A stretch of 64,000 nt of DNA from Gemmatimonadota bacterium (GCA_041486305.1 JBGPLG010000001.1:84429-148428), one strand, 5' to 3'; positions 3,132-47,837 are shown, counted from the first letter of the stretch. The notes: generated by a model not told the origin, from the letters alone. Made by a program: numbers and translations.

Positions 3132-3154
3132 CATATGTTGTTATACAATATATG
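3132..3154. promoter_or_regulatory. imperfect 10-3-10 inverted repeat, candidate PadR operator overlapping the padR start codon
   Basis: CATATGTTGT-TAT-ACAATATATG, arms match 9/10. It sits in an AT-rich patch within GC-rich DNA and includes the ATG at 3152. Confidence 0.4.
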
Positions 3155-3496
3155 GAGCAGCCGGTGCTCGATCGGGAATGGAAGAAGGGCAGCGCGGATC
3201 TCCTGGTGCTCTCCCTGGTGGAACACGAGCCCCGCCACGGCTATGACCTCTGCAAGCTGATCGAGACCCGCTCCCGGGGCGTGCTGACTTTCCACGTCGC
3301 ATCGCTGTACCCGCTGCTCTACCGCCTGGAGAAACGGGGCTGGATCGAGGGCCGCTGGGTGGAAAAGGCGGGCCAGCGGCGGCGGCGCTACTACCGGCTC
3401 ACCCCGGTCGGCCGGAAGGTCCTCGCCGCACAGCGGCGGAGCTGGAGCGCCTTCGCCGCCGCCATCAGCCGGATCGCGGGGGTCCAGAATGCCTGA
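3152..3496 (+). CDS. PadR family transcriptional regulator
   Basis: Winged-HTH signature [27 protein letters not shown]...[18 protein letters not shown]...[12 protein letters not shown]. Start set at MEQPVL because the codons upstream (YVVIQY) are AT-rich and atypical for this DNA. Confidence 0.88.
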
Positions 3497-6173
3497 CTGG
3501 AGCGGCGAGATCCGTCGGCGGCTGGCGCCGCTCTCCCTGGAGCCCACCCGCGAAGCCGACATCGTGGAGGAGCTGTCGCAGCATCTGGACGACCGGTACC
3601 GGGAGCTGCTGGCCCGGGGCCTCGCGGCGGACGCCGCCACGCGCGCCGCGCTCGCGGAGCTCAGCGACGAGGAGCTCACCGGCGCCCTCCGCGGCATCGA
3701 ACGGCCCGCTCCGGCTCCGGCGCCCGCGCCCGGCGCTCCGCGCACCCGCCGGTGGAGCGGCCAGTTCCTGCAGGACCTCCGCTTCGGCGTTCGCATGCTG
3801 CGGACCCGCCCCGGCTTCACGGCTGTCGCCATGCTCACCCTGGCGCTGGGCATCGGTGCCAACACGGCGATCTTCAGCACCGTCAACGGCGTGCTGCTCA
3901 AGCCGCTGCCCTATCCCGAGTCGCAGAATCTGGTGACGTTCTGGGGCACCGCGCCGGAAAAGCGGCTTCCGGTGGTCAACTACCCGGACGCCATGTTCGT
4001 CTTCTTCCACCAACACACCCGGGTGCTCGAATCGGTGGCCGCTTACTCCGGTGGCGGGGTCAGCCTGTCCGGGGAAGGCGACCCTGAGCGGGTTCCGGCG
4101 ACGGCGGTCTCGACCGACTTCTTCTCCGTCATGAGGCAGGTTCCCGTGGCGGGGCGGGGGTTCGTGGCGGACGAAGGAACCAGCGGCAAGAGCAACGTCG
4201 TCGTGGTGAGCCACGCGCTCTGGCGGCGGCGCTTCGGGGGCGATCGCAACCTGGTCGGCAAGTCCATCCTGCTCGGCGGGCAGCCTACAGTGGTGGTCGG
4301 GATCATGGCGCCGGGTTTCGATTTCCCGGAGCGTTCCGAGCTCTGGGTCCCGCTGGTGCTCGACCCGGAAAGCGTGAACAACTGGTACCTCTCGACGGTC
4401 GGACGTCTCAAGCCCGGTCGGACGGTGGAGGACGCCCACCGGGAAGTGGCGGCCATGAGCGACGAGTTCATGCTGAGTCGCCCGGCGAGGTTTCCGGACG
4501 CCAAGCCCGGCGGGGGGAGGGCGGTGGTCCAGCCGGTGCTCCAGAGCCTGGTGGGAGATGCGCGCACTCCGCTTCTCGTACTTCTCGGCGCCGTCGGGTT
4601 GGTTCTGCTCATCGCCTCGGCCAATATCGGGAACCTGCTTCTGGCGCGGGCGCTCGCCCGCAACCGTGAAATGGCCCTGCGTTGCTGTCTGGGGGCCAGC
4701 ACCGGGCGGATTGCCGCCCAGCTGCTGACCGAAAGCCTGGTGCTCGCGGTGCTGGGGGGCGCAGTGGGCCTGCTGCTGGGAGCCCTCGGCGTCGGCCTGA
4801 TCCGGGGCCTTCAGGTCGGACCGGTGCCTCGGCTCGCCGAGGTCCGGCTCGATCCACTCGCCCAGCTCTTCGCGCTCGGTATCACCCTCACCGCGGGCCT
4901 GTTCTTCGGGATGGCGCCGGCGATCCGCGCCTCCCGGGTGAACCCGCTCGTGGGGCTCCAGGGCGGCGCCCGCGGCGGCAGGTCCGGGGGCGCACGACGG
5001 CTGAGCCACGGATTCGTGGTCGCGCAATTCGCCCTGTCGCTGATTCTCCTGATCGGCGCCGGGCTGCTGCTGCGGAGCTTTCGGCGGACGCTCGAGGTCG
5101 ATCCCGGCTTTCGGCCCGAGAACGTCGTGACGGCCCGGGTCCAGCTCCCCTGGCCCAAGTACCGGAGTGACACGGTGGTCCGCGTGTTCCAGACCCGGCT
5201 GCTCGAGTCGGTGCGCACGCTCCCGGGCGTGCGGGAGGTGGGGCTGGCGAGCCGGGTGCCGTTCAGCCCGGGCAATCCCCAACAGAACCTGTACGTCGAG
5301 GACCATCCGGCTCGGTCGGGCGAGGCGATCCCGGTCGTCAATTCGCGAGTGGTCTCCCCCGGGTACTTCGAGGCGATCGGAACGCCGATCCTCCGGGGCC
5401 GCGGGTTTTTGCCGAGCGACAACACCAACGCGCCCCAGGTCGTCGTGGTGGATGAAACCCTGGCGCAGCAGTACTGGCCCGGCGCCGATCCTCTCGGCAA
5501 GCGGATCAGAGTCAGCACCGACAGCGGCACGCCGTGGCTTGCCATCGTCGGTGTGGTGCCAAACGTGAAGCACGCGAGCTTGCGCGAGCGACCCAACTTC
5601 GAGCTCTACCGGCCGTTCACCCAGAATCCCACCTGGTCCTCCTACGTCGTCATGCGCTCCCGAAGCGCGTCTGAGGGACTGGTCCCGGAGCTCCGGCGTC
5701 GGGTGGCCGAGCTGGATCCGACGCTGCCGGTCTCCGAAGTCCAGACGATGGAAGGGGCGATGGCCGAATCGCTGAGCCTCGCCCGGCTCACCAATCTGCT
5801 GCTCACCGGGTTTGCGGGCCTCGCCCTGCTGTTGGCGGTCATCGGCATCTACGGTGTGATGTCGCTCGATGTGAACGGGCGGCTGAGCGAGTTCGGCGTA
5901 CGGCTCGCGCTCGGCGCGGCGCCGCGGGATGTGCTTCGGCTAGTGATGCGACGAGGGCTGTTGCTGGCGCTGCTCGGACTCGGGATCGGCCTGGCCGGTG
6001 CGGTATGGCTGACCCGGTTCCTCGGCGCGCTGCTTTTCGAAGTAAGCCCGGTGGACCCGCTCATCTTCCTGACGGTGGCCGGAGCGCTGACGGCGGCGGC
6101 GGTTTTCGCGTGCTACTTGCCGGCCCGCCGCGCCACCCGGGCCGATCCCATCACGGTGCTGCGGCGCGAATAG
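3489..6173 (+). CDS. ADOP-type duplicated MacB/FtsX permease with N-terminal prefix domain (copy 1)
   Basis: 894 aa. About 95-aa charged helical prefix, then [37 protein letters not shown] (TM1). Two FtsX 4-TM blocks and the C-terminal [17 protein letters not shown] tail. Overlaps the padR stop by 8 nt. Confidence 0.92.
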
Positions 6174-6185
6174 CCGGCTCCGGGC

Positions 6186-8678
6186 TCATTCCGCGCGCAA
6201 TGTGATCAGCGGGTCCACCCGGGTGGCGCGCCGCGCGGGCACGATCAACGCCAGCAGGGCAACGGTACCCAGCAGGAGCAGCAGGACCCCATACACCCTC
6301 GGGTCGGTCGGCTTGACGCCGTAGAGCAGCGATTCCAGCAGCCGGCTCAGCGCCAGCGCGCCGAGCACTCCCGCCGCGAGCCCGGCGCCCGCCACGGCCA
6401 GCCCTTCGCGGACCACCATCCACGCAATCATGCCGGGCCCGCCCCCGATGGCGATGCGGATGCCGATCTCCCGGCTCCGTTCACTGACCGAGTGCGCAAT
6501 CACCCCGTAGATCCCCAGCGCAGCGAGTCCGAGCGCCAGGATCGCGAAGGCCGACAGCAGGCCGGCGTTAAACCGGGCCCGGGCCCAGGTTGCGGCGAGC
6601 GCGTCGGACATGGTCCGCACGTCGAAGATCGGCAGGCCGGGCTCCGCGGCGTTCACGGCCGCGCGGACCTCCGCCACGACCGAGAGCGGATCGCGCTCGG
6701 TCCGCGCCATGACGGTTCGAAAGGCGTAGGTGAACTGGAGGTACGGCGTGTAGAAGCTGGCCTGGCCCGCCGCGCTCTCGATCGATCCATACGGCACGTC
6801 GCCCACCACCCCGACGATCACAGCGCTCGAATCGGGACTCGAGAAAGTACTTCCTCCCCCGAACCAGACCCGCCGACCGACCGGGTCCTCGCCGGGCCAG
6901 AACTTCTGCGCCGCGGTGCGGTTGATGATGGTGACGTGCGGCGCGCCGGCGCGATCGGCCGGCGTGAAGGCCCGGCCGCGCAGCACCGGAATTCCGAGGG
7001 TCCGGAAATGGTCGGGGCCGACATAGTGACGGGTGATCGGCGGCGCCCGGCCGGGCTCCGGCGGCGGCCGGCCCGCGATGTAGAGCGTGCTGTTGGCGTA
7101 GCGGTCGTCGAACGGAGTGCCGGCGTCGACCGAAGCCGACACGACGCCGGGCACCACGGAGACCCGCTGCAGCAGCCGCTCGAGGAGTGCCGGCGCCCGC
7201 TCCGACGGATAGCGCGTGTCGGCCGGCTGGATCCGGAAGGTCAGGAGCCCGGCCGGCTGGAAGCCGTGGTCGACCGCGACCGTCCGCCGGAAACTCTCCA
7301 CCATCAAGCCGGCGCCAATACACAACATGAGCGCCAGCGCCATTTCTCCCACGATGATGAGCCCGCGAAGCTGGGGACGGCGCAGCGAGAGAGACCGCCC
7401 TGCGGAGCTCCCGCCTCCCCGCAACTCCGCGGCCAGGTCGGACCGGGTGGCGCGCAGCGCCGGCAACAGGCCAAACAGCACGGTGGTTCCGAGCGCCAGG
7501 AACAGCGCCATGCCCAGCACGGTGGGGTCCAGCCGCGCCGTGGCGAATTCTCCCAGTGCGCCGTACCCTCCGCGCGCCCCGATGGTGCGCTCCGGTACGG
7601 CCAGCCATCGCAGGATCAAGGCGGCGAGCAGCACTCCACCCAGGCCGCCGGCGCCGGCCAGCAGCACGCTTTCGGTGAGGAGCTGCCGGACCAGCCGCGG
7701 CCGGCCGACCCCGAGCGCGAGCCGGACGGCGATCTCGCGCCGCCGGGCCACCGCGCGTCCGAGTTGGAGGCTGGCCAGGTTGGCCGAGGCGACCAGCAGG
7801 AGGAAAATCGCGGCTCCGAACAGGACCAGTACCGCGCGGCGATTCACCGGATCGATGCGCGCCGCATCGAGCGGAACGGCGGTAGCGGCGAACGTCGCCG
7901 GAACGTCGGTCTCGCTGGGGAGCTCGGCCTGGATCCTGGCGCCAAGGACGGCCAGCTCGGCCCGTGCCGCGGCCGGCGTGACACCGTCGCGCAGCCGGCC
8001 AATGACGCTGAGGAAGTTCTGGTTGGTGGTGAGGTGCTCCCGATAGCTGAGCACCGGCGCCATGGCCTCGGGGGTCCAGAGCTCGGCCTTGCCGGAGAGC
8101 CCCCGGAACCCCGGGGGCATAACGCCCACGATGGTGAGCGGCTCGGCTTCCAGGGTGAGGGTCCGTCCGATCGCGGCGCGGTCACCCGCGAAACGGCGCT
8201 GCCAAAGCGCATAGCCGAGCAGGACGGCCGGATGCGCCCCGGGGATGGAATCCTCTTCGGGCAGAAAAGTCCGGCCGACCAGTGCCGGTACCCCCAGAAT
8301 CCCGAAATACCCGGCCGAGACCTGCTCGCTGGACAGGCGCTCCGGCTCGGCCCCGTCGGTCAGGTTGATGCTGGCCGGGCCGAAGGTCGACACGTCCGTG
8401 AACGAACGCTGTTCCCGGTGCAGCATTCGATAGCGCGGGAAGGACCAGCGCTCGCGCCCCGCGAGGGCCCCGTTCTCGGTTCGGGTGATATAGGGCAGCA
8501 TCAGGCGATCGGCCCGCTCAAACGGGACCGGACGGAACAGCGCGCCGTAGACCACGCTGTATACCGCGGTGGTGGCGCCAATGGCGAGCGTGAGCGTACC
8601 GACCGCGATCGCGGCGAAGAGGCGGCTCCGCACCAGGGCGCGGAGCGCGAAGCGAAGGTCGTGCAGCAGGCTGTCCAT
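6186..8678 (-). CDS. ADOP-type duplicated MacB/FtsX permease, prefix-less (copy 2)
   Basis: Start set at ATG 8678 (MDSLLHDLRFALRALVRSRLFAAIAVGTLTLAIGATTAVYS), which aligns with TM1 of the other copies. AGGAAG lies 5 nt upstream. C-terminal tail PARRATRVDPLITLRAE. The longer ORF to 9179 is Arg/Gly/Pro-rich and overlaps the sigma gene. Confidence 0.88.
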   Translation of the reverse strand: MDSLLHDLRFALRALVRSRLFAAIAVGTLTLAIGATTAVYSVVYGALFRPVPFERADRLMLPYITRTENGALAGRERWSFPRYRMLHREQRSFTDVSTFGPASINLTDGAEPERLSSEQVSAGYFGILGVPALVGRTFLPEEDSIPGAHPAVLLGYALWQRRFAGDRAAIGRTLTLEAEPLTIVGVMPPGFRGLSGKAELWTPEAMAPVLSYREHLTTNQNFLSVIGRLRDGVTPAAARAELAVLGARIQAELPSETDVPATFAATAVPLDAARIDPVNRRAVLVLFGAAIFLLLVASANLASLQLGRAVARRREIAVRLALGVGRPRLVRQLLTESVLLAGAGGLGGVLLAALILRWLAVPERTIGARGGYGALGEFATARLDPTVLGMALFLALGTTVLFGLLPALRATRSDLAAELRGGGSSAGRSLSLRRPQLRGLIIVGEMALALMLCIGAGLMVESFRRTVAVDHGFQPAGLLTFRIQPADTRYPSERAPALLERLLQRVSVVPGVVSASVDAGTPFDDRYANSTLYIAGRPPPEPGRAPPITRHYVGPDHFRTLGIPVLRGRAFTPADRAGAPHVTIINRTAAQKFWPGEDPVGRRVWFGGGSTFSSPDSSAVIVGVVGDVPYGSIESAAGQASFYTPYLQFTYAFRTVMARTERDPLSVVAEVRAAVNAAEPGLPIFDVRTMSDALAATWARARFNAGLLSAFAILALGLAALGIYGVIAHSVSERSREIGIRIAIGGGPGMIAWMVVREGLAVAGAGLAAGVLGALALSRLLESLLYGVKPTDPRVYGVLLLLLGTVALLALIVPARRATRVDPLITLRAE

Positions 8679-8734: not shown

Positions 8735-9979
8735 CTAGCGAGTCAGTTCCCGGATGCGGCGCTCCAGAAAATGGCGCTCCGGCTCCAATTTCGTCAGGGT
8801 GAGCGCACGCCGGTACGAGGCGATCGCCTCGGCGACCATTCCCAGGCGGCGGCAGAGGTCGGCGCGGGCCGAATGGGCCAGGTGGTAGTCGGCCAGCGCT
8901 CCCCGGAGGAGAATCGCGTCGATGAGCTCGAGCCCGGCCGCTGGACCGTCCCGCATCGCCACGGCCGCGGCGCGATTGAGCTCGACCACCGGCGTGGGAT
9001 CCGCGCGAAGCAGGACGTCGTAGAGGCCCACGATCTGCCGCCAGTCGGTCGCGCCGGCGTCGGCGGCCTCGGCGTGCACCGCCGCGATGGCGGCCTGGAG
9101 CGTATAGGGGCCGAAGCGACGTGAGCCCAGGGCCCGCTCGACCAGGGCGCATCCTTCGGCGATCTGACCGCGATCCCACCGGCTGCGATCCTGATCGGCC
9201 AGCAGGACGAGCCCGGCGGAGGCGGACACCCGGGTCTCGCGGCGGGAGTCGTGCAGCAGCATCAGAGCGAGCAGTCCCAGGACCTCGGGTTCGGGCAGAA
9301 GATCGGCCAGGAGCCGCCCCAGCCGAATGGCCTCGGCAGAGAGATCGTGCCGGGTGAGGGAGGCGCCCGACGACGCGGTGTACCCCTCGTTGAACACCAG
9401 ATAGACGACGTGGAGCACGGCGTCGAGCCGCTCGGGCAGATCGGCCCGCGACGGCACCTGATAAGGAATACCGGCGTCCCGGATCTTGGCCTTGGCGCGC
9501 ACGATCCGCTGGGCCAGCGCGGGGGCCGAGATCAGGAACGCGCGGGCGATCTCTTCGGTCTCCAGTCCGCAGACCTCGCGCAGCGTCAGGGCGATCCGGG
9601 CGTCGGGGGGCAGGGCGGGGTGGCAGCAGGTGAAGACGAGGCGGAGCCGGTCGTCGTCGACGGCGTCGTCGTCCGGATCCGGCACGGGCGAGGCCTCCGC
9701 GTCCAGCCGCTCGGCGATCGAGGAGAGCGACGCGTCGAACCGGGCCCTCCGTCGCAGCTGGTCGATGGCCTTGAACCGTCCGGCCGAAACCAGCCAGGCC
9801 CGCGGGTTATCGGGAACGCCGGTCTCGGGCCAGCGGCTCAGGGCGGCGGCGAAGGCTTCCTGCAGCGCCTCCTCGGCGAGGTCGAAATCACCGAGGAGGC
9901 GGATGAGGGTGGCGAGGACCCGACGGGACTCGGACCGGTAAATGGAGTCCACCATGCTCCGGACCTCGTCAGCCGGCAT
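8735..9979 (-). CDS. ECF-type RNA polymerase sigma factor with long C-terminal extension (ECF42-like)
   Basis: 414 aa. Has RVLATLIRLLGDFDLAEEALQEAF, the sigma-4 region LTLREVCGLETEEIARAF and a roughly 200-aa helical/TPR-like C-terminal extension. Preceded by a YciI/DGPF gene, the hallmark context of the ECF42 group (from memory). Confidence 0.85.
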   Translation of the reverse strand: MPADEVRSMVDSIYRSESRRVLATLIRLLGDFDLAEEALQEAFAAALSRWPETGVPDNPRAWLVSAGRFKAIDQLRRRARFDASLSSIAERLDAEASPVPDPDDDAVDDDRLRLVFTCCHPALPPDARIALTLREVCGLETEEIARAFLISAPALAQRIVRAKAKIRDAGIPYQVPSRADLPERLDAVLHVVYLVFNEGYTASSGASLTRHDLSAEAIRLGRLLADLLPEPEVLGLLALMLLHDSRRETRVSASAGLVLLADQDRSRWDRGQIAEGCALVERALGSRRFGPYTLQAAIAAVHAEAADAGATDWRQIVGLYDVLLRADPTPVVELNRAAAVAMRDGPAAGLELIDAILLRGALADYHLAHSARADLCRRLGMVAEAIASYRRALTLTKLEPERHFLERRIRELTR

Positions 9980-10325
9980 TGTACTCCATGATGGGCCGGA
10001 CTTCGATGGAGCCGACCCGCACCGAGGGAATCCGGGCCGCCACCTGGATGGCGTCGTTCAGATCCTTGGCCGTGATGAGGTAGAAACCGCCCAGCTGTTC
10101 CTTGGTTTCGGCGAAGGGCCCGTCGGTGGTGGAGACCTTGCCCTGCCGCGACCGGATGGTGGTGGCCGTCTGGGTGGGCTGCAGGGGCTCGCCGCCGAGG
10201 TAGTGGCCGGTCTTCTTGATGTCGTTGGTGAAGGCGCGGTACTCCCCCATGACCGCGTCCGACTCTGCCTTCGGCATCTTTTCCCAGAGAGTCTCGTCCG
10301 AGTAGATCAGGCACAGGTATTTCAT
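9969..10325 (-). CDS. YciI-family (DGPF domain) protein
   Basis: 118 aa. Starts MKYLCLIY and contains the signature TTDGPFAETKEQLGGFYLI. Overlaps the sigma gene start by 11 nt. Confidence 0.9.
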   Translation of the reverse strand: MKYLCLIYSDETLWEKMPKAESDAVMGEYRAFTNDIKKTGHYLGGEPLQPTQTATTIRSRQGKVSTTDGPFAETKEQLGGFYLITAKDLNDAIQVAARIPSVRVGSIEVRPIMEYNAG

Positions 10326-10571: not shown

Positions 10572-11741
10572 ATGCCTAACTTACGCCAGCGCGCCGCGGG
10601 TGCGGCACTCCTCTCAGCGGCGGCCGTTGCATCGCCTGCCTGCAAACAGCAATCGGCGCCGTTCGCGCCGCCTCCGCCGGAGGTGGCGGTAGTCGAGGTG
10701 GTCCCCCGGACGCTGGACCAGGTCTACGAGTTCTCCGGCAGCGTCGAGGCGTCCCGGAGCGTACAGGTGCGCTCCCAGGTGGCGGGTGTGGTGAAGGCCC
10801 GCCCCTTCCACGAGGGCCAGGCCGTCAAGGCAGGCGACGTCCTCTATCAGATCGACCAGACCGCGTTCGAAGCCGACTGGCGCGCCGCCCGGGCGCGGCT
10901 CACTGAAGCGGAGGCGCGGGCGGCCAACGCCAGACAGACCCTCACCCGGTTTGCCGCGCTGTTATCGGACAGCGCGGTGTCCCGCCAGGACTACGACAAC
11001 GCCTCGGCGCAGGCCAAGCAGGCCGATGCGGCGGTCGAGGAGGCTCGCGGCATCGCGGACCGGGCCAAGAAGAATCTCGACGACACGATGGTGCGTGCCG
11101 AGCTGTCGGGCCGGGTCGGCAGGGCGCTGCTCGAGGTCGGCGCCCGGGTCCGGGGCACCGACGACATCCTCACGTACATCGACGTCCTGGACCCGATCTA
11201 CGTAGTCTTCCGGCCCTCGGCACAGCAAATCCTGTCGTGGCGGCGGGACCCCCGCGCCACCCGCATGCTGGCTCCGGGGGGCAGGCTCACCTTCCAGGCG
11301 ATCCTACCGGACGGCGCGCCGGCGCCGAGCCGGGGGCGGCTCGACTTCATCGACCCGGTGGTGGACCCGTCCACCGGGACCCAGCAATTCCGGGCCGAGT
11401 TTCCCAACCGGGAGCGGCTGCTGCTGCCGGGGCAGTTCGTCCGGGTCCGCCTGCTCGGCCTGGTCCGGGACAGCGCGATCGTGGTGCCGCAGCGCGCGGT
11501 GCTGCTCCAGATGGGCCGCCAGACGGTGTATGTCGTCGCGGCGGGTGACACCGTGCGGGTCCGGGACGTGGTGGCCAGCGACTGGGCCGGCGACCAATGG
11601 CTGATCGAGGAGGGCCTGGCTCCCGGTGACCGGGTCATCGTGGACGGGGTGCAGAAGGTGGGCCCGGGCGCCAAGGTGAAACCGGTCCGGGCGGACAGCG
11701 CGACGGCGGGGAAAGCCGCCGGCGGAGGCGCCCGCCCGTGA
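10572..11741 (+). CDS. efflux RND transporter periplasmic adaptor (membrane fusion protein)
   Basis: Signal/lipobox-like N-terminus MPNLRQRAAGAALLSAAAVASPAC. HlyD/AcrA-type lipoyl and hairpin pattern (QVAGVVKARPFHEGQAVKAGDVLYQIDQTAFEADW). The stop overlaps the RND start. Confidence 0.9.
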   Translation: MPNLRQRAAGAALLSAAAVASPACKQQSAPFAPPPPEVAVVEVVPRTLDQVYEFSGSVEASRSVQVRSQVAGVVKARPFHEGQAVKAGDVLYQIDQTAFEADWRAARARLTEAEARAANARQTLTRFAALLSDSAVSRQDYDNASAQAKQADAAVEEARGIADRAKKNLDDTMVRAELSGRVGRALLEVGARVRGTDDILTYIDVLDPIYVVFRPSAQQILSWRRDPRATRMLAPGGRLTFQAILPDGAPAPSRGRLDFIDPVVDPSTGTQQFRAEFPNRERLLLPGQFVRVRLLGLVRDSAIVVPQRAVLLQMGRQTVYVVAAGDTVRVRDVVASDWAGDQWLIEEGLAPGDRVIVDGVQKVGPGAKVKPVRADSATAGKAAGGGARP

Positions 11742-14905: not shown

Positions 14906-14906
14906 C

Positions 14907-30409: not shown

Positions 30410-30414
30410 GACGC

Positions 30415-37929: not shown

Positions 37930-37945
37930 GACCGTTCCCATAGTG

Positions 37946-37980: not shown

Positions 37981-38053
37981 GTCAATGGGAAGCCGCGATG
38001 GCGGCGGGCGGGGCGCCGCGGTATCGTAGAGATCGTCCTTCTCCGGGTCCCCC

Positions 38054-39835: not shown

Positions 39836-41700
39836 ATCGGAGAGAATTCGTGGCGCTGTCCGCCGCCGCGGCACTGCCCTTGTCGCGCCGCTGGGCGCGC
39901 CCCGCCGCGCCGGTGGCCCCGACGGCCGTGCCGTTCGACCTGTCCCGGATCCGCCTGCTGCCGGGTCCGCTCTACGACGAGATGCAGATCAACCGCCGGT
40001 TCCTGCTGGCCCAGGACCCCGACCGGCTGCTCCATACCTTCCGCCTCAAGGCCGGGCTCCCCTCGACCGCCGAGCCGTTGGGCGGGTGGGAAGCACCGGC
40101 CAACGAGCTACGGGGTCATTACACCGGGCACTATCTCTCGGCGTGCGCCCTGATGGCGGCGCAGGGAGATGGAGAGCTCAAGGCCCGGGGCGAGAAGCTG
40201 GTGGCCGAGCTGGCCCGGTGCCAGCAGCCGAACGGGTACCTGAGCGCCTTTCCGGAAGAATTCTTCGACCGGCTCCGCGCCGACCAGCCGGTCTGGGCGC
40301 CGTTCTACACCTATCATAAGATCATGGCCGGCCTGCTGGACATGCATGTGCACGCGGGCAGCGCGCCGGCGCTCGACCTGGTCAAGGGCATGGCGCGCTG
40401 GACCACCCGATGGACCCAGCCGCTGGGCGACTACGAGATGGCGCGGGTGCTGGAGCGGGAGTACGGCGGGATGAACGAGGTGCTCTACAATCTGTCGGTG
40501 GTGGCGCAGGACCCCGGCCTTCGGGGCACCGCCCGGCGCTTCGACCATGAGCGAGTCTTCGGGCCACTGGCGCAGGGCATGGACCAGCTCAAGGGTCTCC
40601 ATGCCAACACGCTGATCCCCAAGATCATCGGCGCTGCCAGGCGCTACGAGCTGACGGCTGACCCGCGGTACCGACGGATCGCGGAGTACTTCTGGCGCGA
40701 GGTGACCACCGCGCGGGCATATGCCACCGGGGGCACCAGCAACGGCGAAGGGTGGCAGGCCGAGCCGAACGTCCTGTCGACCCAGTTGAGCGGGTACACG
40801 CAGGAGGACTGCGTCACCTACAACATGATGAAGCTGACTCGGCATGTCTTCGGCTGGACCGCCGATCCCGGCTGCGCCGACTACTACGAACGGGCGCTCT
40901 GGAACGGTATCGTCGGAAGCCAACACCCGTCGGACGGCAACAAGCTCTATTACGTCTCCCTGGGGTCGGGGCTCTGGAAGCTGTTCGGCACGCCGAGCCA
41001 GGACTACTGGTGCTGTACCGGCTCGATGAGCGAGGCCTTTTCCAAGCTGGGCGACAGCATCTACTTCCACGACGAGAGCGGGCTGTTCGTGAACCTGTTC
41101 GCGGCCTCGGAGCTGGATTGGCAGGAGCGGGGCGTGAAGGTGGTCCAGGAAACCCTGTTTCCCTCGGAAGAGGGCACCGCGCTCACCATTCGGACCCGGA
41201 AGCCCGCCGGGTTCACGCTCCGGGTCAGAGTGCCGTATTGGGCCACCGGATCGAACTCCGCCTCGCTCAACGGAAAGCTGCTCGAAGGCTTCGCCGGGCC
41301 GGGGGGCTACTATGTGCTGGACCGCACCTGGAAGGACGGCGACCGTCTTTCGCTCAGGCTCCCGATGAGCCTCCACGCGCACCCGATGCCCGACGACCCG
41401 TCGTTGCAGGCGTTCATGTACGGCCCGCTGGTCCTGGCCGGCCGCCTGGGCGCCGAAGGGCTGACGCCGGCCACGCTTCGAGCGGAGCCCACCAAGCCGC
41501 GCACCGTCCCCAACTACCCGCTGGAACCGATCGCCGCGCCCGCGTTCAAGGCCGCGGGAGACGACCTCTCCGCCTGGATCAAGCCGGGATCCGGTCCGGG
41601 CGAGTTCCAGACCACGGGCCAGGCCCGCGATGTGACCCTGATGCCGTTCAACCGGCTCTTCGACGAGCGCTACGCCGTGTATTGGAAGGTGACGCGCTAG
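39832..41700 (+). CDS. glycoside hydrolase family 127 (beta-L-arabinofuranosidase-like, DUF1680)
   Basis: Internal ATG in the frame of ORF 38398-41700 with a TAT-like signal MNRREFVALSAAAALP. GH127 hallmarks: HYTGHYLSA, ATGGTSNGEGW, the E-x-C pair in YTQEDCVTYN, and the CC pair in DYWCCTGS (Zn/nucleophile cysteines in HypBA1, from memory). Confidence 0.85.
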   Translation: MNRREFVALSAAAALPLSRRWARPAAPVAPTAVPFDLSRIRLLPGPLYDEMQINRRFLLAQDPDRLLHTFRLKAGLPSTAEPLGGWEAPANELRGHYTGHYLSACALMAAQGDGELKARGEKLVAELARCQQPNGYLSAFPEEFFDRLRADQPVWAPFYTYHKIMAGLLDMHVHAGSAPALDLVKGMARWTTRWTQPLGDYEMARVLEREYGGMNEVLYNLSVVAQDPGLRGTARRFDHERVFGPLAQGMDQLKGLHANTLIPKIIGAARRYELTADPRYRRIAEYFWREVTTARAYATGGTSNGEGWQAEPNVLSTQLSGYTQEDCVTYNMMKLTRHVFGWTADPGCADYYERALWNGIVGSQHPSDGNKLYYVSLGSGLWKLFGTPSQDYWCCTGSMSEAFSKLGDSIYFHDESGLFVNLFAASELDWQERGVKVVQETLFPSEEGTALTIRTRKPAGFTLRVRVPYWATGSNSASLNGKLLEGFAGPGGYYVLDRTWKDGDRLSLRLPMSLHAHPMPDDPSLQAFMYGPLVLAGRLGAEGLTPATLRAEPTKPRTVPNYPLEPIAAPAFKAAGDDLSAWIKPGSGPGEFQTTGQARDVTLMPFNRLFDERYAVYWKVTR

Positions 41701-41713
41701 CGTATTTTCCGGC

Positions 41714-43450
41714 ATGCGTTTCGTCACCGGCATCCTTCTCGGCTTACCGGCCGCCCTGTCCGCGCAGGGATCGTCCCGGCCTTCGACCCCCGCGTTCACC
41801 CGGACGTTGGCCGAGGCACGGGCGGAGTTTTCCGGCCCACGGGCGCTGGCCACCACCGCATTCATCGAGCAGTACTGGCGGGTGGCGGGGAACACCGGCT
41901 TCAACGCCAGCATCGCGAGGGTGGCCGCCATCCTCGACAGCGCGGGCTTCCTGCCGGAAGACCGGGGAACCGCCTCCTCCCGGCTCACCTACCGGATCGA
42001 GCACCGCCCGATGTCGCGGCCCACCTGGGAGCCGGTAGACGGCTCGCTTACGATCGTGGGTCAGGCAACGCCCGTCCTCCGCTATGCCACGAACCGTCAT
42101 ATGCTCGGCATGTACTCGGCCTCCACGCCCGCGGGCGGAGTCGAGGCCGAGCTGGTCGACGTCGGGAAGGGCACTCCCGCGGATTTTTCGGGAAAGGACG
42201 TGGCGGGGCGGATCGTGCTCGGGGACCTGTCGCTGCGAGCTCTCTGGACCGAAGCGGTCCTGAAGCGAGGCGCGCTGGGGGTGCTGGCCTATTCGATGCC
42301 TGCTTACACCCGGCCCGAGGTGAATCGAAGCTCGATTCAGTTCACCGGGATTCCGTACGACTCGGCACGCGCCGGGTGGGGCATCCCGCTGTCCTTCGGC
42401 GCGTGGGAGTCGCTCCGCGCCGCGCTGGCCGACGGTCCGGTCCGGGTCCGGGCGGAGCTCTCGACCCGGCTCTATCGATCCGAGGAGCTGACCCTGGTGG
42501 CCGAGGTGCGCGGGAGTCGCGCACCGTCGGAGCGGTTCGTCTTCAGCGCCCATGTCCAGGAGCCGGGCGCCAACGACAACGCCTCGGGAGTGGGCGCGCT
42601 CGCGGAGCTGGCGCGGGTCACCGCTGCGCTGGTGCGGTCGGGCCAACAGGATCCGGGGCGCACCATCACCTTCCTCTGGGGCGAGGAGATCGCCTCGACG
42701 GCGCGATTCCTCAAGGACGATTCGGTCCGAACTGCGGGCGTGCGTTGGGGATTGTCGCTTGATATGGTGGGCGAAGACGCGTCGAAGACCGGCGGCACCT
42801 TCCTCATCGAGAAGATGCCGGATCCCTCGGCGGTGTGGACCCGGGGCGAGGACCACCACACCGAGTGGGGCGGATCACCGATGACGGTGGCGCAGCTCAC
42901 TCCCCACTATTTCAACGACTTCGTCCGGAACCGCTGCCTCGACCAGGCAGCGGGGACCGGGTGGGTGGTGGGGACCAACCCGTTCGAGGGCGGGAGCGAC
43001 CACACCCCATTCCTGGCCGCGGGGAAGCCCGGGCTGCTGCTCTGGCACTTCACCGATCAGTTCTATCACACCGACGGCGACCGGATCGGCAACGTGAGCG
43101 CGGGCGAGATCCGGAACGTGGGGATCTGCGCGCTGACCACGGCCCTGGCGCTGGCTTCGGCGGACGCGGTAACCGCGAGCTTCGTCATCGACGAAACCCG
43201 GCGGGCCGCGCTCGAGCGGCTGGAGAAGGAAACCGCCCTGAGCATGGCGGCGGTCCGGCGGGAAAGCACCCGGGAGAAGGAGCTGCAGATTCTCCGCGCC
43301 TGGGTCGACTGGTACCGGGGCGCCCTGGACGCGATCAGGGAAGTGGAAATCGGAGGAGCCTCAGCCGGAACGATGGCACGGATCGACGCGGCGAAGCGGG
43401 ACGTGGAGCAGGGGTTCGAGAAGGCGAGAAGACAGATCTTCTCGGAGTGA
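41714..43450 (+). CDS. M28-family metallopeptidase with PA domain
   Basis: Signal MRFVTGILLGLPAALSAQG. PA-domain insert, then M28 zinc-ligand blocks SAHVQEPGANDNASG and EGGSDHTPF. Confidence 0.85.
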   Translation: MRFVTGILLGLPAALSAQGSSRPSTPAFTRTLAEARAEFSGPRALATTAFIEQYWRVAGNTGFNASIARVAAILDSAGFLPEDRGTASSRLTYRIEHRPMSRPTWEPVDGSLTIVGQATPVLRYATNRHMLGMYSASTPAGGVEAELVDVGKGTPADFSGKDVAGRIVLGDLSLRALWTEAVLKRGALGVLAYSMPAYTRPEVNRSSIQFTGIPYDSARAGWGIPLSFGAWESLRAALADGPVRVRAELSTRLYRSEELTLVAEVRGSRAPSERFVFSAHVQEPGANDNASGVGALAELARVTAALVRSGQQDPGRTITFLWGEEIASTARFLKDDSVRTAGVRWGLSLDMVGEDASKTGGTFLIEKMPDPSAVWTRGEDHHTEWGGSPMTVAQLTPHYFNDFVRNRCLDQAAGTGWVVGTNPFEGGSDHTPFLAAGKPGLLLWHFTDQFYHTDGDRIGNVSAGEIRNVGICALTTALALASADAVTASFVIDETRRAALERLEKETALSMAAVRRESTREKELQILRAWVDWYRGALDAIREVEIGGASAGTMARIDAAKRDVEQGFEKARRQIFSE

Positions 43451-43490: not shown

Positions 43491-44675
43491 CTAGCGCAGT
43501 TCCCGCAACCGGGCCAGCTCGGCCGATTCGATCAGCCGTCCGCTCAGGACCACCGCGGACAGCGAGCGAAGGTTCCTGATGTCGGCGAGCGGGTCGGCGT
43601 CGAGCACCAGAAACATCGCCGGCGCCCCCACTTCGATGCGCCCGCTGCCGTGGTGCAGCACCGCCTCGGCAGCGGTGGTGGTGCCGGCCGCCAGGGCCTG
43701 GCGTGGCGTCATCCCGATCTCCACCAGCCGTTCCAGCTCGAGCAGCAGCACGTCGCCGTGCCGTTCCAGTACGTCGGAGCCGGCCAGGATCGGCACTCCC
43801 GCCTTCACGATCCGTCCCGCGAGCAGCTTCATCCGCGCATACGCCTCCCGCCGCCGCGCCGCGACCTCGGGGCTCGCCGTGGCAAAGGTCGCCTCATAGC
43901 CGACCAGGGTCGGATCGAAGAAGGTGTGGTTGCGCTTGAGAACGGCCCAGATGGAATCGCCATGGGGGCCCATGAGCCGGTCGGTGATCTGGAGGAACAG
44001 CTCGGGGGTCACCTTCAAGTCGGGCTGCTCGTTCTCGAAGATGGTCTGAATGTGCTCGATGGTACGCATGCCGCGATTCGACGCCTCGATCCAGGAGAGC
44101 GCCAGGGGAACATGTCCGCTCACCGTGAGGCCATTGCGGCGTGCCTCATCGATGACCGCGAGAAACGCCGGCCTTCCGATCGCGCGGTGCACCTTGATGA
44201 AGTCCACGCCCAGCGCCCGGAGCTCGCGCACGGCCGCGCGGGCCTCGGCCTCGGTGACGACCTTGCGGTGGAACGGGGCGGGCTGCTCGCCGTTGAGGGT
44301 GGGGCCGGCCATCACGATCTCGGGCCCGATCCGGTCGCCGGAACGGATCCGGCCCCGCAACGGAAACAGGGTGTCGGGAAACCCGCCCATGTCGCGTATA
44401 CCGAGCACGCCGTACCCGACGTACTGTTCCGGCGCATTCCCGACCGGGCCGGACGACGCCAGATGGGCGTGCATGTCCCAGAGCCCCGGGACCAGGAATT
44501 TTCCATGCGCATCGACGACCCGGGCGCCGGGAGGAACCCGGGGCGCCCGCCCGACGGCCGTCACGTGCCCGCGTTCCACCACCACGGTGCCCTGGGTGGC
44601 CGGGCTCTTCCCGGTGGGATCGATGATGGTGCCGTTGGCGATGACCAGCGCCTGCGCAAGCAGCGATCCTATCAA
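43491..44675 (-). CDS. amidohydrolase-superfamily metal hydrolase (Xaa-Pro dipeptidase / imidazolonepropionase-like)
   Basis: VIANGTIIDPTG...GKFLVPGLWDMHAHL (HxH metal motif). I prefer the TTG start at 44675: GGGAGG lies 4 nt upstream and it forms a TTGA overlap with the permease stop. The longest ORF starts at GTG 44735. Confidence 0.82.
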   Translation of the reverse strand: MIGSLLAQALVIANGTIIDPTGKSPATQGTVVVERGHVTAVGRAPRVPPGARVVDAHGKFLVPGLWDMHAHLASSGPVGNAPEQYVGYGVLGIRDMGGFPDTLFPLRGRIRSGDRIGPEIVMAGPTLNGEQPAPFHRKVVTEAEARAAVRELRALGVDFIKVHRAIGRPAFLAVIDEARRNGLTVSGHVPLALSWIEASNRGMRTIEHIQTIFENEQPDLKVTPELFLQITDRLMGPHGDSIWAVLKRNHTFFDPTLVGYEATFATASPEVAARRREAYARMKLLAGRIVKAGVPILAGSDVLERHGDVLLLELERLVEIGMTPRQALAAGTTTAAEAVLHHGSGRIEVGAPAMFLVLDADPLADIRNLRSLSAVVLSGRLIESAELARLRELR

Positions 44676-47299
44676 CCGTCCTCCCGGAGTGTCACCGCCG
44701 GGTCCACCCGCAGCGCGCGGCGGGTGGGAAGCCACGTCGCCAGCGCGGCGACGCCCACGAGGACTCCGGCTACGAGTACCAGGGTGACGGGGTCGCTGGG
44801 TGAAAGCCCGTAGAGGAGTTTACCCAGGAAGCGCGTGGTCGCAAGCGATGCCGCCAGGCCGACCGCGACGCCGAGGCCCACGAATCGAGACCCTTCGCCC
44901 ACGACCAGCCGTGCGATCCTGCCTCCGGTGGCGCCGAGGGCCCGGCGGAGCCCGATCTCGCGGGACCGCTGGCCGACGATGTAGGCCAGCACCCCGTAGA
45001 GTCCGATCGCCGAGAGGATCAGGGCGAGCACGGCGAGGAGGCTGAGCAGCAGCATCGGGTAGCGGCGGTCGGCGGTGGACTCCGCGAGGCGCGATTCGAG
45101 CGTCTCCACGGCGAGCACCGGGAGGGAGCGGTCTATCGCGGCGATTTCCCGGCGCACCAGCGGCGCGAGCGCCGCCGTCCCAGCGGAAACCCGGATCACG
45201 ACCGTCATGTCGGCCGGCGGCCCCTGCAGGAACGGATAGAACACCGTCGGCCGGGGATCCACGTCCAGGCCGTCGCGCCGCATGTCTCCCACGACGCCGA
45301 CGACCTCGAGGACCGTATCCGGCTCGGCCATATCGACGCGGATCCGCTGGCCGATCGGCGACGCGCCCTTGAGCACCTGCCGAGCGAAGGCCTTGCTGAT
45401 GAGGACCACGCGCGGGGCGCCCAGGCGATCGGCGGCGATGAACCCGCGACCCTGCACCAGCGGAGTCCGCATGGCGCGGAGGTATGACGCGTCGACGGTA
45501 TTCACTTCGGTGACCGCGGCCTGGCCCGCCGGTGGCTCGGGCTGTCCGACGATATGCACCGATGTCGCGGGCGCCAGGCCGCGCAGCGGAAGGAAGTTCA
45601 CCAGGCCCACGTCGTCCACGCTCCGAAGAGCGCCGATGCGCCGGGCCAGCTCCTCATAGAAGGCGGCCTTCTTTTCCGGCGGACCATACGCATCACCGGG
45701 GAGGCGGAGCTGGACCGTCAGGACGCTCCGGGGATCGAACCCCGGCTGCACCGAGAGCAGATTGGCGAGGGAGCGCACCGTCAGGCCCGCGCCGGTCAGC
45801 AGCATCAGGCTGAGCGCCACCTGGACCGACACCAGCGCACCGCGCAGGGTCCGGCCCCGGGGAGCCGAGCCGGCTTCGCCCCCCCTGCGGCTGAGCGGCT
45901 GGCGCAGCGAGCTCTCCCGGAGCGCCAGCGCGGGCGCCAGTCCGAACGCCAGGCCAGCCAATGCGGTGATCAGGAGGGCGAATCCCAGCACCCTGAAGTC
46001 AATGCTCACTTCCTGAAGCCGCGGAATCTGCCGCACCTGGGCATGTACCAGCGCGCGGACGCCCAGCGCCGCCGCCACGATGCCCAGCCCGCCACCCGCA
46101 GCCGCAAGCACCAGCCCTTCCACCACCATCTGCCGCAGGATCCTCCCGCGCGATGCGCCGAGGGCCGCCCGCACCGCGAGCTCGGTACGGCGCGCCAGCA
46201 CCTGACCCAGCTTGAGGTTGGCGACGTTGGCGCAGGCGATCAGCAGCACCGACGCGATGGCTCCGGCGAGCAGCAGGAGCACCGGACGCGCCCTGCCGGT
46301 GACCTGGTCCTGCAGCCCGATCACATCGGCGGTCCAGCCCGTGTTGAACTTCGGATACTCCCCCGCAAGCGAGACGGCGATGGCATGCATTTCCCGGTCG
46401 GCGGCGGCGGCGGTGACTCCTTCGCGAAGCCGGCCGATCACCATGGCGTAGCGGCCCCGGCGCACCTGCTGGCTGCTGGTGACCGCCCAGGGTTCCCAAT
46501 ACTCCTCGCCGCCCATCGGCCGGAAGCCGCGGGGCATGACGCCCACCACCCGGGCGGTCGCGTCCCGAAGCACCACGGTTCTGCCGATCACCGTGGGATC
46601 TCCGCCGAACCGGCGGAGCCAGAGCCCATGGCTCAGCACCAGCGCCACCGGCGCTCCCGGGAGCGTGTCTTCGGGCGCGAGCAGCCGTCCCAGCGCCGGG
46701 CGGACGCCAAGGGTGGGGAAGAAGTTGGTGGTGACGGCGCGCCCGTCGAGAATCTCCGGCGCGTCACCGCTGAGTGGGGCGCTGGCCCAGGTATACATCG
46801 CCAGGGACTCGAAGCTCCGGGCCCGGTCGCGCCAGTCCACGAAGTTGGCGGGCGCCACCAGATTCTCGCGGCGGTCGCGCGGGATGTTGTGCTCCCAGAC
46901 CTGGACCAGCCGGCCGGAATCGGCGTAGGGCAATGACTTGAGCAGCACCGCATCGAGCACGCTGAAGAGCGCGGTGGTGACGCCGATGCCGAGCATCAGG
47001 GTGAGGATGGCGGCGGCCGCGTACCCTGTGCGGCGCCGAAGGCCGCGCAAGGCGTACTTCACGTCCTGGGTGAAGTCGTCCCAGGCCGGCGGCGACCAGA
47101 CGGCGCGGGCGCTTTCCCGGGCCTGGGCCGTGTTCCCCACCTGGCGCCGCGCCGCGAAGCGGGCCGCTTCGGGGTCGGCGCCCTCGCGCCGCGCATCTTC
47201 GGCGGCCATCTCTTCGTGGAAACCGAGCTCGTCATTGAGATCCGCCTCGAAGCGGCCGCGACGGAGGAGGTGGAGGATGCGCCGGATGATGCTGCTCAT
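44672..47299 (-). CDS. ADOP-type duplicated MacB/FtsX permease with prefix domain (copy 5)
   Basis: Start at ATG 47299 (MSSIIRRILHLLRRGRFEADLNDELGFHEE). Prefix motif EGADPEAARFAARRQVGN, TM1 LRRRTGYAAAAILTLMLGIGVTTALFS, tail PTRRALRVDPAVTLREDG. Confidence 0.9.
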   Translation of the reverse strand: MSSIIRRILHLLRRGRFEADLNDELGFHEEMAAEDARREGADPEAARFAARRQVGNTAQARESARAVWSPPAWDDFTQDVKYALRGLRRRTGYAAAAILTLMLGIGVTTALFSVLDAVLLKSLPYADSGRLVQVWEHNIPRDRRENLVAPANFVDWRDRARSFESLAMYTWASAPLSGDAPEILDGRAVTTNFFPTLGVRPALGRLLAPEDTLPGAPVALVLSHGLWLRRFGGDPTVIGRTVVLRDATARVVGVMPRGFRPMGGEEYWEPWAVTSSQQVRRGRYAMVIGRLREGVTAAAADREMHAIAVSLAGEYPKFNTGWTADVIGLQDQVTGRARPVLLLLAGAIASVLLIACANVANLKLGQVLARRTELAVRAALGASRGRILRQMVVEGLVLAAAGGGLGIVAAALGVRALVHAQVRQIPRLQEVSIDFRVLGFALLITALAGLAFGLAPALALRESSLRQPLSRRGGEAGSAPRGRTLRGALVSVQVALSLMLLTGAGLTVRSLANLLSVQPGFDPRSVLTVQLRLPGDAYGPPEKKAAFYEELARRIGALRSVDDVGLVNFLPLRGLAPATSVHIVGQPEPPAGQAAVTEVNTVDASYLRAMRTPLVQGRGFIAADRLGAPRVVLISKAFARQVLKGASPIGQRIRVDMAEPDTVLEVVGVVGDMRRDGLDVDPRPTVFYPFLQGPPADMTVVIRVSAGTAALAPLVRREIAAIDRSLPVLAVETLESRLAESTADRRYPMLLLSLLAVLALILSAIGLYGVLAYIVGQRSREIGLRRALGATGGRIARLVVGEGSRFVGLGVAVGLAASLATTRFLGKLLYGLSPSDPVTLVLVAGVLVGVAALATWLPTRRALRVDPAVTLREDG

Positions 47300-47399
47300 G
47301 GGGGAGACGCGTTCTGACCGGAGATCCGGCTCAGAGCCCACGCGGCCGCGTCCCGGACCTTCGGACTCGGGTCGTGCGCCGCGCCTTCGATCGCCGCGA

Positions 47400-47744
47400 T
47401 CATGCCGGCCTCACCACGCTCCGGACCGCGGCCACCAGCTGGTCGAACGCCGAGACCTCATGGGCCAGCTGGCGACGGCCGGCCGGGGTGAGGGCGTAGT
47501 ACCGGGCTCGGCGTTTCGTGGGAGTGAGCCTCCACTCGGCGGTGACCCAGCCCTTGATCTTGAGGCGCTGGAGCGCGGGATAGAGCGAGCCTTCCTCCAC
47601 CCTGAGCGCGGCCCCGGAGAGCCGGCCGATATGCCCCGCGATGCCGTACCCGTGCATCGGCGTCACCGAGAGGGTCTTGAGGATCAGGAGATCGAGGGTT
47701 CCGGGGAGGAGCTCGACCCGGAGCGGATCGCGGGGGGCAGCCAT
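47400..47744 (-). CDS. PadR family transcriptional regulator (acidobacterial-type)
   Basis: MAAPRDPLRVELLPGTLDLLILKTLSVTPMHGYGIAGHI...KRRARYYALTPAGR. Confidence 0.9.
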   Translation of the reverse strand: MAAPRDPLRVELLPGTLDLLILKTLSVTPMHGYGIAGHIGRLSGAALRVEEGSLYPALQRLKIKGWVTAEWRLTPTKRRARYYALTPAGRRQLAHEVSAFDQLVAAVRSVVRPA

Positions 47745-47749
47745 AGCGC

Positions 47750-47778
47750 CTCAATACATAGTGAGTCTATGGATTGAG
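47750..47778. promoter_or_regulatory. 12-5-12 inverted repeat (11/12), candidate PadR operator
   Basis: CTCAATACATAG - TGAGT - CTATGGATTGAG, 6 nt upstream of the padR ATG. Extra CTATGG/CCATAG copies lie at 47741-47746 (over the start codon) and 47782-47787. Confidence 0.5.
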
Positions 47779-47837
47779 AATCTATGGTCAACCGAGCGCC
47801 CCGTCAAGCCGGGGGCCCACCGCCCTACATTTCGGCC

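Follow-up and report, generated by a model that had tools for sequence, protein, structure and literature searches.

Five ADOP permeases without a neighbouring transporter ATPase: PadR repressors, matched prefixes and a putative shared motor

How are five large membrane proteins of the MacB/FtsX kind energized when no transporter ATPase is encoded anywhere near them, and why should four of them be led by the gene of a PadR repressor? The question is raised by a 64,000-nucleotide stretch of DNA from a Gemmatimonadota bacterium (GCA_041486305.1, JBGPLG010000001.1:84429-148428), henceforth the window, in which five genes of the ADOP family of duplicated permeases add up to 13,194 nucleotides, or 20.6% of the total. 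They are named here A to E in their order along the sequence: ADOP-A (3489-6173, plus strand, 894 residues), ADOP-B (6186-8678, minus strand, 830 residues, convergent with A), ADOP-C (27683-30409, minus strand, 908 residues), ADOP-D (34924-37584, minus strand, 886 residues) and ADOP-E (44672-47299, minus strand, 875 residues). Each reading frame begins with ATG and ends at a terminal stop, with zero internal stops. An earlier note on this DNA, made from the sequence alone, had placed the genes at exactly these positions, with lengths of 830 to 908 residues and the same sum, about one fifth of the window. Its outer limits for the group, 3132-47787, are slightly off, position 3132 not being an in-frame start and 47400-47787 holding stop codons; the gene content that it gave is right.

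All five proteins pass the whole-protein cut-off of the NCBIfam model TIGR03434 ('ADOP family duplicated permease', 622.3 bits), with 918.9 bits for A, 842.7 for B, 858.5 for C, 790.3 for D and 886.8 for E. Profile searches find two PF12704 (MacB_PCD) and two PF02687 (FtsX) domains in every one of them, as expected from the family call and from the two FtsX blocks per protein that had been proposed; in ADOP-A a prefix is followed twice by one transmembrane (TM) helix, MacB_PCD and three further TM helices. The five-protein alignment shows both of the motifs that had been quoted as shared, one around TM1 and one, P.RRA..[VA]DP...LR.E, in the C-terminal tail, B departing from the others in the PGF part of the first. 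Pairwise identity is 31-39% across near-full length (E-values 1e-83 to 1e-146), which makes the five genes old paralogs, neither recent copies nor chance resemblances. The G+C content of the window is 65-72%, its sequence matches assembly GCA_041491445.1, and the nearest homologs of its proteins are annotated as Gemmatimonadales. The host of the genes is thus probably a member of the Gemmatimonadales, not of the Acidobacteria, and the 'acidobacterial' of the family's older name misfits here.

The explanation of the whole that we find best, and to which we would give a probability of about 0.55, is that these proteins are fused-dimer permeases that would use an ATPase in trans, and that those led by PadR would belong to self-repressed operons whose repressor is read out via an N-terminal prefix of the permease itself. 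The ADOP family, its PadR partnership, the model of the prefix and the architecture that joins a HAAS domain, PadR and an FtsX/MacB-PCD protein were all catalogued or published beforehand. What is added here is that the 'orphan' character is not intrinsic, that prefix and PadR follow a near-perfect rule and diverge together, that candidate operators can be named, and that two of the modules are coupled to hydrolases in the manner of YbbAP-TesA.

Prefix and repressor

Overlooked in the earlier note, a cytoplasmic prefix of about 60 residues stands at the N-terminus of ADOP-A, C, D and E. It is the NCBIfam domain perm_prefix_1 (NF038403, cut-off 30 bits), which scores 32.7 bits in A (approximately 3543-3674, plus strand), 48.2 in C (approximately 30209-30379, minus strand), 44.6 in D (approximately 37390-37563, minus strand) and 29.9 in E (approximately 47111-47278, minus strand), the last being marginally under the cut-off and aligning with the family. 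The reading frame of ADOP-B has no match to the prefix model, and aligns from position 1 of the TIGR03434 profile at its residue 4. In an AlphaFold2 model of ADOP-D the prefix consists of helices 17-38, 43-54 and 57-97 and has no significant match among solved structures; G40 is invariant and precedes an S/T-P turn (42-43), and the third helix runs almost unbroken into TM1 (99-128).

The same four genes are directly preceded by a PadR gene; B has neither prefix nor PadR. PadR-A (3152-3496, plus strand, 114 residues), a short LmrR-like protein with a PF03551 domain, overlaps ADOP-A by 8 nucleotides. PadR-C (30415-30744, minus strand, 109 residues, likely start ATG 30744) ends 5 nucleotides before ADOP-C, PadR-D (37594-37929, minus strand, 111 residues, likely start ATG 37929) 9 nucleotides before ADOP-D, and PadR-E (47400-47744, minus strand, 114 residues) 100 nucleotides before ADOP-E. 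These spacings had been correctly reported, and the model of ADOP-associated PadR paralogs, TIGR03433 (cut-off 101.8 bits), recognizes all four proteins, with 113.8 (A), 129.6 (C), 138.1 (D) and 133.5 bits (E). The likely start of PadR-A, ATG 3152, agrees with the public gene call. That of PadR-D is preferred because its orthologs in two related loci, L083 and L084 (related loci are cited by our own numbers), have 111 residues, the L083 counterpart being 86% identical; the upper limit of PadR-E is set by the stop codons within 47400-47787. The wide gap of module E comes from a 97-nucleotide insert (47300-47396, minus strand) that separates the stop of PadR-E from the start of ADOP-E and is missing from L083, where the two genes overlap by 4 nucleotides, and from L084, where a short intergenic gap separates them. 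The insert holds a small hairpin, CCGGATCTCCGG, and is open in the reading frame of E.

How general is this association? Scanning one genome per species with the alignment of the five paralogs gave 79 loci, mostly from Acidobacteriota, with others from Gemmatimonadota, Verrucomicrobiota, Myxococcota and Actinomycetota. Their six-frame open reading frames (ORFs) were searched with hidden Markov models built from the ADOP core, prefix and PadR of the window, the cassettes of its ABC-F protein serving as seeds for ATP-binding cassette (ABC) ATPases, and 282 ADOP ORFs were found in 1.39 Mb. Among the 230 genes with an intact N-terminus and at least 800 nucleotides of upstream sequence, 34 have both a prefix and an upstream PadR and 178 have neither, while 16 have a prefix without PadR and 2 a PadR without prefix (Fisher p = 5e-26). 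The 16 are mostly placed inside co-directional tandem arrays of prefix-ADOPs, and wherever the head of the array is visible PadR leads it, as in L052, where PadR is followed by four such genes, or in L045 and L021, where it is followed by three. Grouped by co-directional array, the prefix is present in 45 of the 49 genes of 36 PadR-led arrays, in 0 of the 47 genes of 15 ATPase-led arrays, in 0 of the 63 genes of 38 leaderless arrays, and in 5 of the 84 genes of 34 arrays whose head lies off the locus. In other words, PadR-led arrays hold 45 of the 50 prefix-bearing genes, and the remaining 5 are in arrays with no visible head. ADOPs that have a PadR repressor and a matched prefix instead of an ATPase leader thus appear to form a distinct subclass. 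Separate clades for the classes were looked for and rejected: the cores of PadR-led, ATPase-led and leaderless ADOPs intermix in sequence space. In L047 (950-1489 and 9745-10431) prefix-like matches occur in short ORFs outside any intact ADOP, beside ADOP fragments; either frameshifts in ADOP genes or prefix proteins that stand alone may explain them.

Not only do the two elements occur together, they also diverge together. Over 33 PadR/ADOP pairs, the divergence of PadR correlates with that of the prefix at r = 0.57, against r = 0.15 for the permease core, and the correlation with the prefix is 0.56 once the core is partialled out (p = 5e-4 by permutation). As the divergence of PadR goes along with that of the prefix, not with that of the core, the repressor is matched to the prefix rather than to the body of the transporter, and the prefix is likely to be the physical link to PadR. 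A precedent exists. HAAS is a three-helix domain, always encoded beside a stand-alone PadR-like winged helix-turn-helix protein (PMC11237479). The same comparative genomics study of 2024 lists it fused to FtsX-like TM and MacB/PCD regions next to PadR and proposes a signal relay (PMC11237479); the coupling to a regulator had been described already. In Listeria, operons that encode a PadR beside a HAAS/DUF1700 membrane protein are repressed about 100-fold by that PadR (PMC6624303).

On what DNA would the repressors act? In front of each PadR gene of the window stand a promoter-like TTGAC hexamer and an inverted repeat specific to its module. Directly before the start of PadR-A lies an AT-rich imperfect palindrome, ATATGTTGTTATACAATAT (3133-3151, plus strand), of a type, ATATG-N9-CATAT, that recurs upstream of PadR in L004, L005 and L061; in L004, which has a 60%-identical ortholog, the upstream region reads CATATATGG-N5-CCATATATG. 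The candidate operator of PadR-C, CTCCTC-TTGACAACCAT-GAGGAG (30814-30836, minus strand, spacer N11), is placed around a -35-like TTGACA hexamer, and arms flanking TTGAC in this way are also found in L005, in L021 and in front of PadR-D. There, two candidate sites are present: CTTCCCAT-TGACATCTT-ATGGGAAG (37968-37992, minus strand, N9 spacer), over a TTGACA hexamer, and TTCCCATA-AGATCAC-TATGGGAA (37935-37957, minus strand, N7 spacer). Both are kept where L083, L084 and L085 have the orthologous module, with proteins of 68-85% identity and a variable spacer between the two palindromes. For PadR-E the candidate is CTCAATCCATAG-ACTCA-CTATGTATTGAG (47750-47778, minus strand), just downstream of a TTGACC hexamer, its core CCATAG-N5-CTATGG being kept in L084, ahead of the PadR gene that goes with the E ortholog. 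Of 37 PadR upstream regions, 14 contain a perfect palindrome whose arms are 7 nucleotides or longer, against 2.2 in shuffled sequences and 2 of 37 coding controls. A single universal operator is to be rejected: the arms differ from module to module, and CATA-N-TATG is present upstream of merely 4 of the 37 PadR genes. This diversity fits with four insulated autoregulatory circuits.

The PadR proteins might instead sense an inducer directly, as LmrR and the phenolic-acid PadR do, and so de-repress a co-transcribed pump subunit, the prefix having another role, for instance in assembly or membrane targeting, and no dealings with PadR. In LmrR, a regulator of an ABC pump, drugs are bound at the dimer interface. 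Short PadR proteins of the LmrR type (1xma, 3f8b family, E about 1e-12) come nearest to PadR-D among solved structures, and autorepression at promoter palindromes would fit this explanation just as well. It nevertheless gives no account of a prefix confined to PadR-led arrays and never found in ATPase-led or leaderless ones, nor of a PadR divergence that follows the prefix, nor again of gene B, which misses both elements. We therefore regard direct sensing as a serious but unlikely candidate.

Permease fold and ATPase partners

A six-frame scan for Walker A and LSGGQ motifs finds a single ABC protein in the window, an Uup/EttA-like ABC-F with two ABC_tran domains (ORF 16462-18360, minus strand), at least 6.6 kb away from every ADOP. 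The earlier statement that a soluble ABC-F is the only ABC ATPase in 64 kb is thereby confirmed. Its companion, that the permeases are orphans whose energy source is undescribed, stands for the window, with no local transporter ATPase, and falls for the family: with 15 arrays led by an ATPase gene, being an orphan is not a defining trait of ADOPs. These arrays comprise one to eight ADOP genes each, and their 47 ADOPs score 936-1077 bits against TIGR03434. The ATPases that head them are single-cassette proteins, with DarD, MacB, LolD and FtsE as best models. In nine loci (L025, L027, L029, L031, L041, L062, L064, L079 and L081) a membrane fusion protein (MFP) gene stands directly upstream of the ATPase, so that the order reads adaptor, ATPase, then one to eight ADOPs; the adaptors are closest to RND_mfp/DarC models. 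No outer-membrane factor was found beside ADOP arrays in the surveyed loci. From this gene order, ADOPs would often be driven in cis by a MacB/DarD-type ATPase together with a MacA-like adaptor. The word 'orphan' should go, and the presence of many ADOPs in adaptor-ATPase arrays means that they can be treated as exporters or extractors of the MacAB/DarBCD kind with a shared motor.

Locus L056 brings both worlds together. All its genes are co-directional, and a PadR is followed there by an ADOP with a prefix (64 bits for perm_prefix_1, 991 bits for the ADOP part), an MFP and an ATPase; no further FtsX-type permease is present in the locus. We also note that in L006 (13500-23397, all on one strand) a naked ADOP is followed by a MacB-type ATPase, a PadR and two successive prefix-ADOPs. 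The ATPase gene lies 46 nucleotides upstream of PadR, making this the second case, after L056, of an ATPase beside a PadR module.

Have the permeases of the window kept what is needed to dock an ATPase? The AlphaFold2 model of ADOP-D, built from 96 sequences (mean predicted local distance difference test score 85, predicted template-modelling score 0.75), has 8 TM helices, two beta-rich periplasmic domains and two short cytoplasmic helices, 382-390 and 791-799. The residues E384, R388, G392, E793, R797 and G801, invariant in the 96 homologs, fall at these two helices, and all five ADOPs of the window have R..RE.A.R.ALGA, without variation, in each half. A Foldseek search with the model returns YbbP first (E = 7e-24; 9GE6/9GE7), followed by MacB (6e-17), then Spr0695, LolE/C, BceB and HrtB; among solved proteins, MacB is the nearest in sequence. 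The corresponding loops of YbbAP are coupling helices that contact two YbbA ATPases, and the permease partners the periplasmic hydrolase TesA (PMC12646458). The loop motifs of the ADOPs, R..RE.A.R.ALGA in the first half and QRT.EIGIRMALGA in the second, as well as the tail PARRAT.VDP..LR.E, are conserved to the same extent in the three classes: the mean top-residue frequency in ATPase-led, PadR-led and leaderless proteins is 0.71, 0.71 and 0.73 for the first coupling helix, and 0.66, 0.64 and 0.65 for the second. To judge from predicted fold and alignments, ADOPs are fused-dimer permeases of type VII ABC systems that keep their ATPase-docking elements.

This conservation bears on the idea that the prefix-ADOPs are pure envelope sensors, needing neither transport nor ATPase, their periplasmic domains binding a signal that the prefix relays to a PadR that might have targets elsewhere. 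In favour of such a role, the TM domains fused to HAAS are taken for sensors in the published hypothesis (PMC11237479). Relatives of the FtsEX type are signal transmitters, not transporters, and no ATPase is encoded in cis. A mere sensor, however, accounts poorly for coupling helices and a C-terminal tail that are just as well conserved when PadR leads as when an ATPase does, with cores that intermix. In L056 a prefix-ADOP is co-directional with an adaptor and an ATPase, and the only candidate operators visible for PadR are at the modules' own promoters; we find the pure sensor decidedly improbable. Finally, that ADOPs are true orphans, working passively or on proton-motive force without any ABC ATPase, as the family name implies, is very hard to believe, for although 38 arrays and the window's five genes are without an ATPase leader, and although the TIGRFAMs description is reported to have ADOP genes essentially never beside ATPase genes, 15 arrays (47 genes) are led by an ATPase, with adaptors, the residues invariant in 96 homologs sit in the ATPase-docking helices, and we know of no FtsX-fold protein that is driven by the proton-motive force.

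On the explanation preferred here, each ADOP of the window would be the membrane-embedded component of an ABC system of type VII (MacB-like, mechanotransmission), with two MacB-type halves in one 8-TM chain. It would most likely team up with a MacB/LolD/DarD-type ATPase, present in two copies, and probably with a MacA-like adaptor, both of them common to the paralogs and specified by genes at other places of the genome. In modules A, C, D and E a PadR dimer would repress its own padR-adop(-hydrolase) operon at the module-specific palindrome over the promoter. When the permease engages its substrate or cycles, the prefix would capture or reconfigure the cognate PadR, and the operon would be de-repressed. 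Such a relay would be a transporter-embedded, one-component analogue of flux sensing by BceAB-BceS. The substrates are likely to be amphiphilic or hydrophobic compounds active on the envelope, and in modules D and E a translationally coupled hydrolase would be added, as in YbbAP-TesA. One may tentatively go further, in a picture that is possible but that we would not bet on: ADOPs would be interchangeable cartridges for a shared adaptor-ATPase engine, up to eight or more per operon and others in trans, the subset in which a PadR and a prefix that docks it stand in for the cis engine acting as one-component flux sensors that induce only the cartridge suited to the incoming compound, with its hydrolase. 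The window would then contain four insulated sensor-cartridges, each with an operator of its own.

Several observations weigh against the trans-ATPase, prefix-to-PadR explanation. No MacB-type ATPase or ABC-associated adaptor is present in the 64-kb window or in the 10 kb to its right; on the left, the limit of the window falls on the end of a contig in GCA_041491445.1. In related loci, 38 arrays are led by neither an ATPase nor a PadR. The short PadR proteins are similar to those of the LmrR type, which bind their ligands directly. As for the prefix, the gathering score of the Pfam HAAS model PF22564 (27 bits) is not reached, the best matches in the window being 17.8 bits in A (E = 0.0045) and 16.4 bits in D (E = 0.012), and a HAAS match at E < 0.1 is seen in only 5 of 33 related prefixes. 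A profile search of the prefix against solved structures gives designed helical repeats and ribosomal S15 only, non-significantly, and Foldseek with an AlphaFold2 model of the prefix alone gives nothing below E = 2, so that the HAAS fold of the prefix is putative. The co-divergence of PadR and prefix could stem from the transfer of a padR-prefix cassette instead of physical contact. Moreover, our search of the literature found no experimental work on ADOP.

Neighbouring genes and module turnover

Two modules end with a gene for a hydrolase. The start of a beta-lactamase-fold serine hydrolase (33824-34927, minus strand, 367 residues; PF00144, E = 4e-64; weak AmpH and class C matches), with a lipoprotein-like signal, MTRRVLAFALAVAAC, overlaps the stop of ADOP-D by 4 nucleotides. 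The same overlap is present in L083, where the hydrolase is 79% identical, and in L084. Similarly, an amidohydrolase-family metallohydrolase (43491-44675, minus strand, 394 residues; PF01979) overlaps the stop of ADOP-E by 4 nucleotides, as it does in L083, with 85% identity for the amidohydrolase and 84% over 875 residues for ADOP-E. Between modules D and E, divergent from PadR-D, the plus strand carries a 593-residue protein without Pfam family and a GH127 beta-L-arabinofuranosidase (38054-41700). An M28 peptidase gene (41714-43450) comes next; this trio separates the D and E modules in L083 too.

ADOP-B has another kind of company. It is the third gene behind those of a YCII protein (9969-10325, minus strand; Pfam) and of an extracytoplasmic function (ECF)-type sigma factor with a tetratricopeptide repeat/DUF6596 tail (8735-9955, minus strand; TIGR02937 sigma70-ECF and Pfam), the sigma gene lying 56 nucleotides upstream of ADOP-B and the YCII gene, co-directional, 13 nucleotides upstream of the sigma gene. 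With a sigma gene upstream of B, all five ADOPs may have a dedicated regulator. As a general grammar, adjacency of ECF sigma and ADOP was rejected: it is present in the window alone and not in the other surveyed loci. Next to this unit is a complete tripartite efflux operon of the resistance-nodulation-division (RND) type (10572-16388, plus strand; MFP, ACR_tran, OEP), which holds the only MFP and the only outer-membrane (TolC-like) factor of the window. No MFP and outer-membrane factor working with an ABC part, as expected of a tripartite exporter, is found there; the outer-membrane factor of the RND operon could in principle be shared with ABC-type pumps.

The surroundings of ADOP-C illustrate how fast such modules change. 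The slot between AMP-binding and amidase genes (26287-32375) holds PadR and ADOP-C in the window; in L083 (16027-21413) it holds a naked ADOP of 807 residues, 33% identical to C, among flanking genes that are 77-87% identical; and in L084 and L085 it holds no ADOP. With contents that differ so much among close relatives, modules must be gained, lost and replaced quickly, and the slot looks like a hot spot for the turnover of ADOP cassettes. As far as these comparisons go, PadR and prefix come and go together. The amidase and ADOP-C genes are convergent, and their ends overlap by 14 nucleotides. Between the ABC-F gene and ADOP-C extends a catabolic cluster (18449-27696) with an aldehyde dehydrogenase, an aminotransferase, CoxG, a cyclase, an amidase and a three-subunit molybdenum hydroxylase (Fer2, MoCoBD, FAD_binding_5). 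At the right edge of the window and beyond it (window 62857-64000; L086 11362-13387) are genes for an ECF sigma factor, a zf-HC2 anti-sigma factor and a DUF4097 (Toastrack-like) protein, one more envelope-stress-type signalling unit such as those treated in the paper on HAAS and the phage shock protein (PSP) response (PMC11237479).

Comparison with known systems

The ADOPs of the window are unstudied rather than strange, since their relatives elsewhere belong to ordinary adaptor-ATPase-permease pump operons. In soil Acidobacteriota, Gemmatimonadota and Verrucomicrobiota, few families of membrane proteins have expanded as much as ADOP. The locus will not surprise a specialist; it exemplifies a large unstudied family for which there is now a clean, testable hypothesis. 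Compared with the NCBIfam definitions (TIGR03434, TIGR03433 and NF038403), five of five permeases, four of four PadR proteins and three of four prefixes pass the cut-offs; what differs is the host, probably a member of the Gemmatimonadales, and the orphan trait, which holds in the window and not family-wide.

Closest to the regulatory part is the HAAS-PadR dyad of the Ravi/Aravind PSP survey (mSystems 2024, PMC11237479), which likewise has an N-terminal helical domain on a multi-TM protein beside a stand-alone PadR. The predicted helices of the prefix and its conserved G-x-x-P turn might fit HAAS, with the difference that HAAS itself has GxP and that the PF22564 match is below threshold. In Listeria, LstR and LltR are PadR proteins co-transcribed with a HAAS/DUF1700 membrane protein and strongly self-repressing (PMC6624303); instead of ABC permeases, their membrane partners are of the FtsW/RodA-like or DUF1700 kind.

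On the side of the transporter, the best structural match to the ADOP-D model is YbbAP-TesA of E. coli (PDB 9GE6-9GE8; PLoS Biol 2025, PMC12646458). Like the ADOPs, YbbP is a pseudo-dimer in one chain, a type VII permease with two periplasmic domains (Porter/Sabre) and a pair of coupling helices, its ATPase being a protein apart. YbbP, by contrast, has 10 TM helices, with a TM5-6 linker, as against 8 in the ADOP model (BceB likewise has 10), ybbA adjoins ybbP, neither PadR nor prefix is present, and sequence identity is about 14%. YbbAP pairs with a periplasmic hydrolase, to be compared with the hydrolases coupled to D and E, and by analogy this parallel suggests that these two modules might be extract-and-degrade detoxification units. 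With MacAB-TolC and the split DarBCD, ADOPs share MacB as the nearest solved sequence and, in related loci, the order adaptor, ATPase, ADOP. MacB has its ATPase fused at the N-terminus and a homodimeric permease, whereas in ADOP the halves are fused and the ATPase is separate, not in the window; the prefix occupies the very N-terminal position where MacB bears its ATPase.

In the PadR modules, repressor, prefix and palindrome make a compact, testable signalling hypothesis, with defined candidate operator sequences and with natural controls: one is gene B, the other the naked ADOP found at the place of C in the close relative L083. Here the system to compare is BceAB-BceRS, whose FtsX-fold permease is at once the sensor by which its own expression is controlled, and BceB is indeed among the Foldseek matches. 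The likeness is one of analogy only, with a histidine kinase and a response regulator there, and a PadR and a fused prefix proposed here. Should the signalling idea prove true, prefix and PadR would constitute a transporter-embedded alternative to flux sensing by two-component systems of the Bce type.

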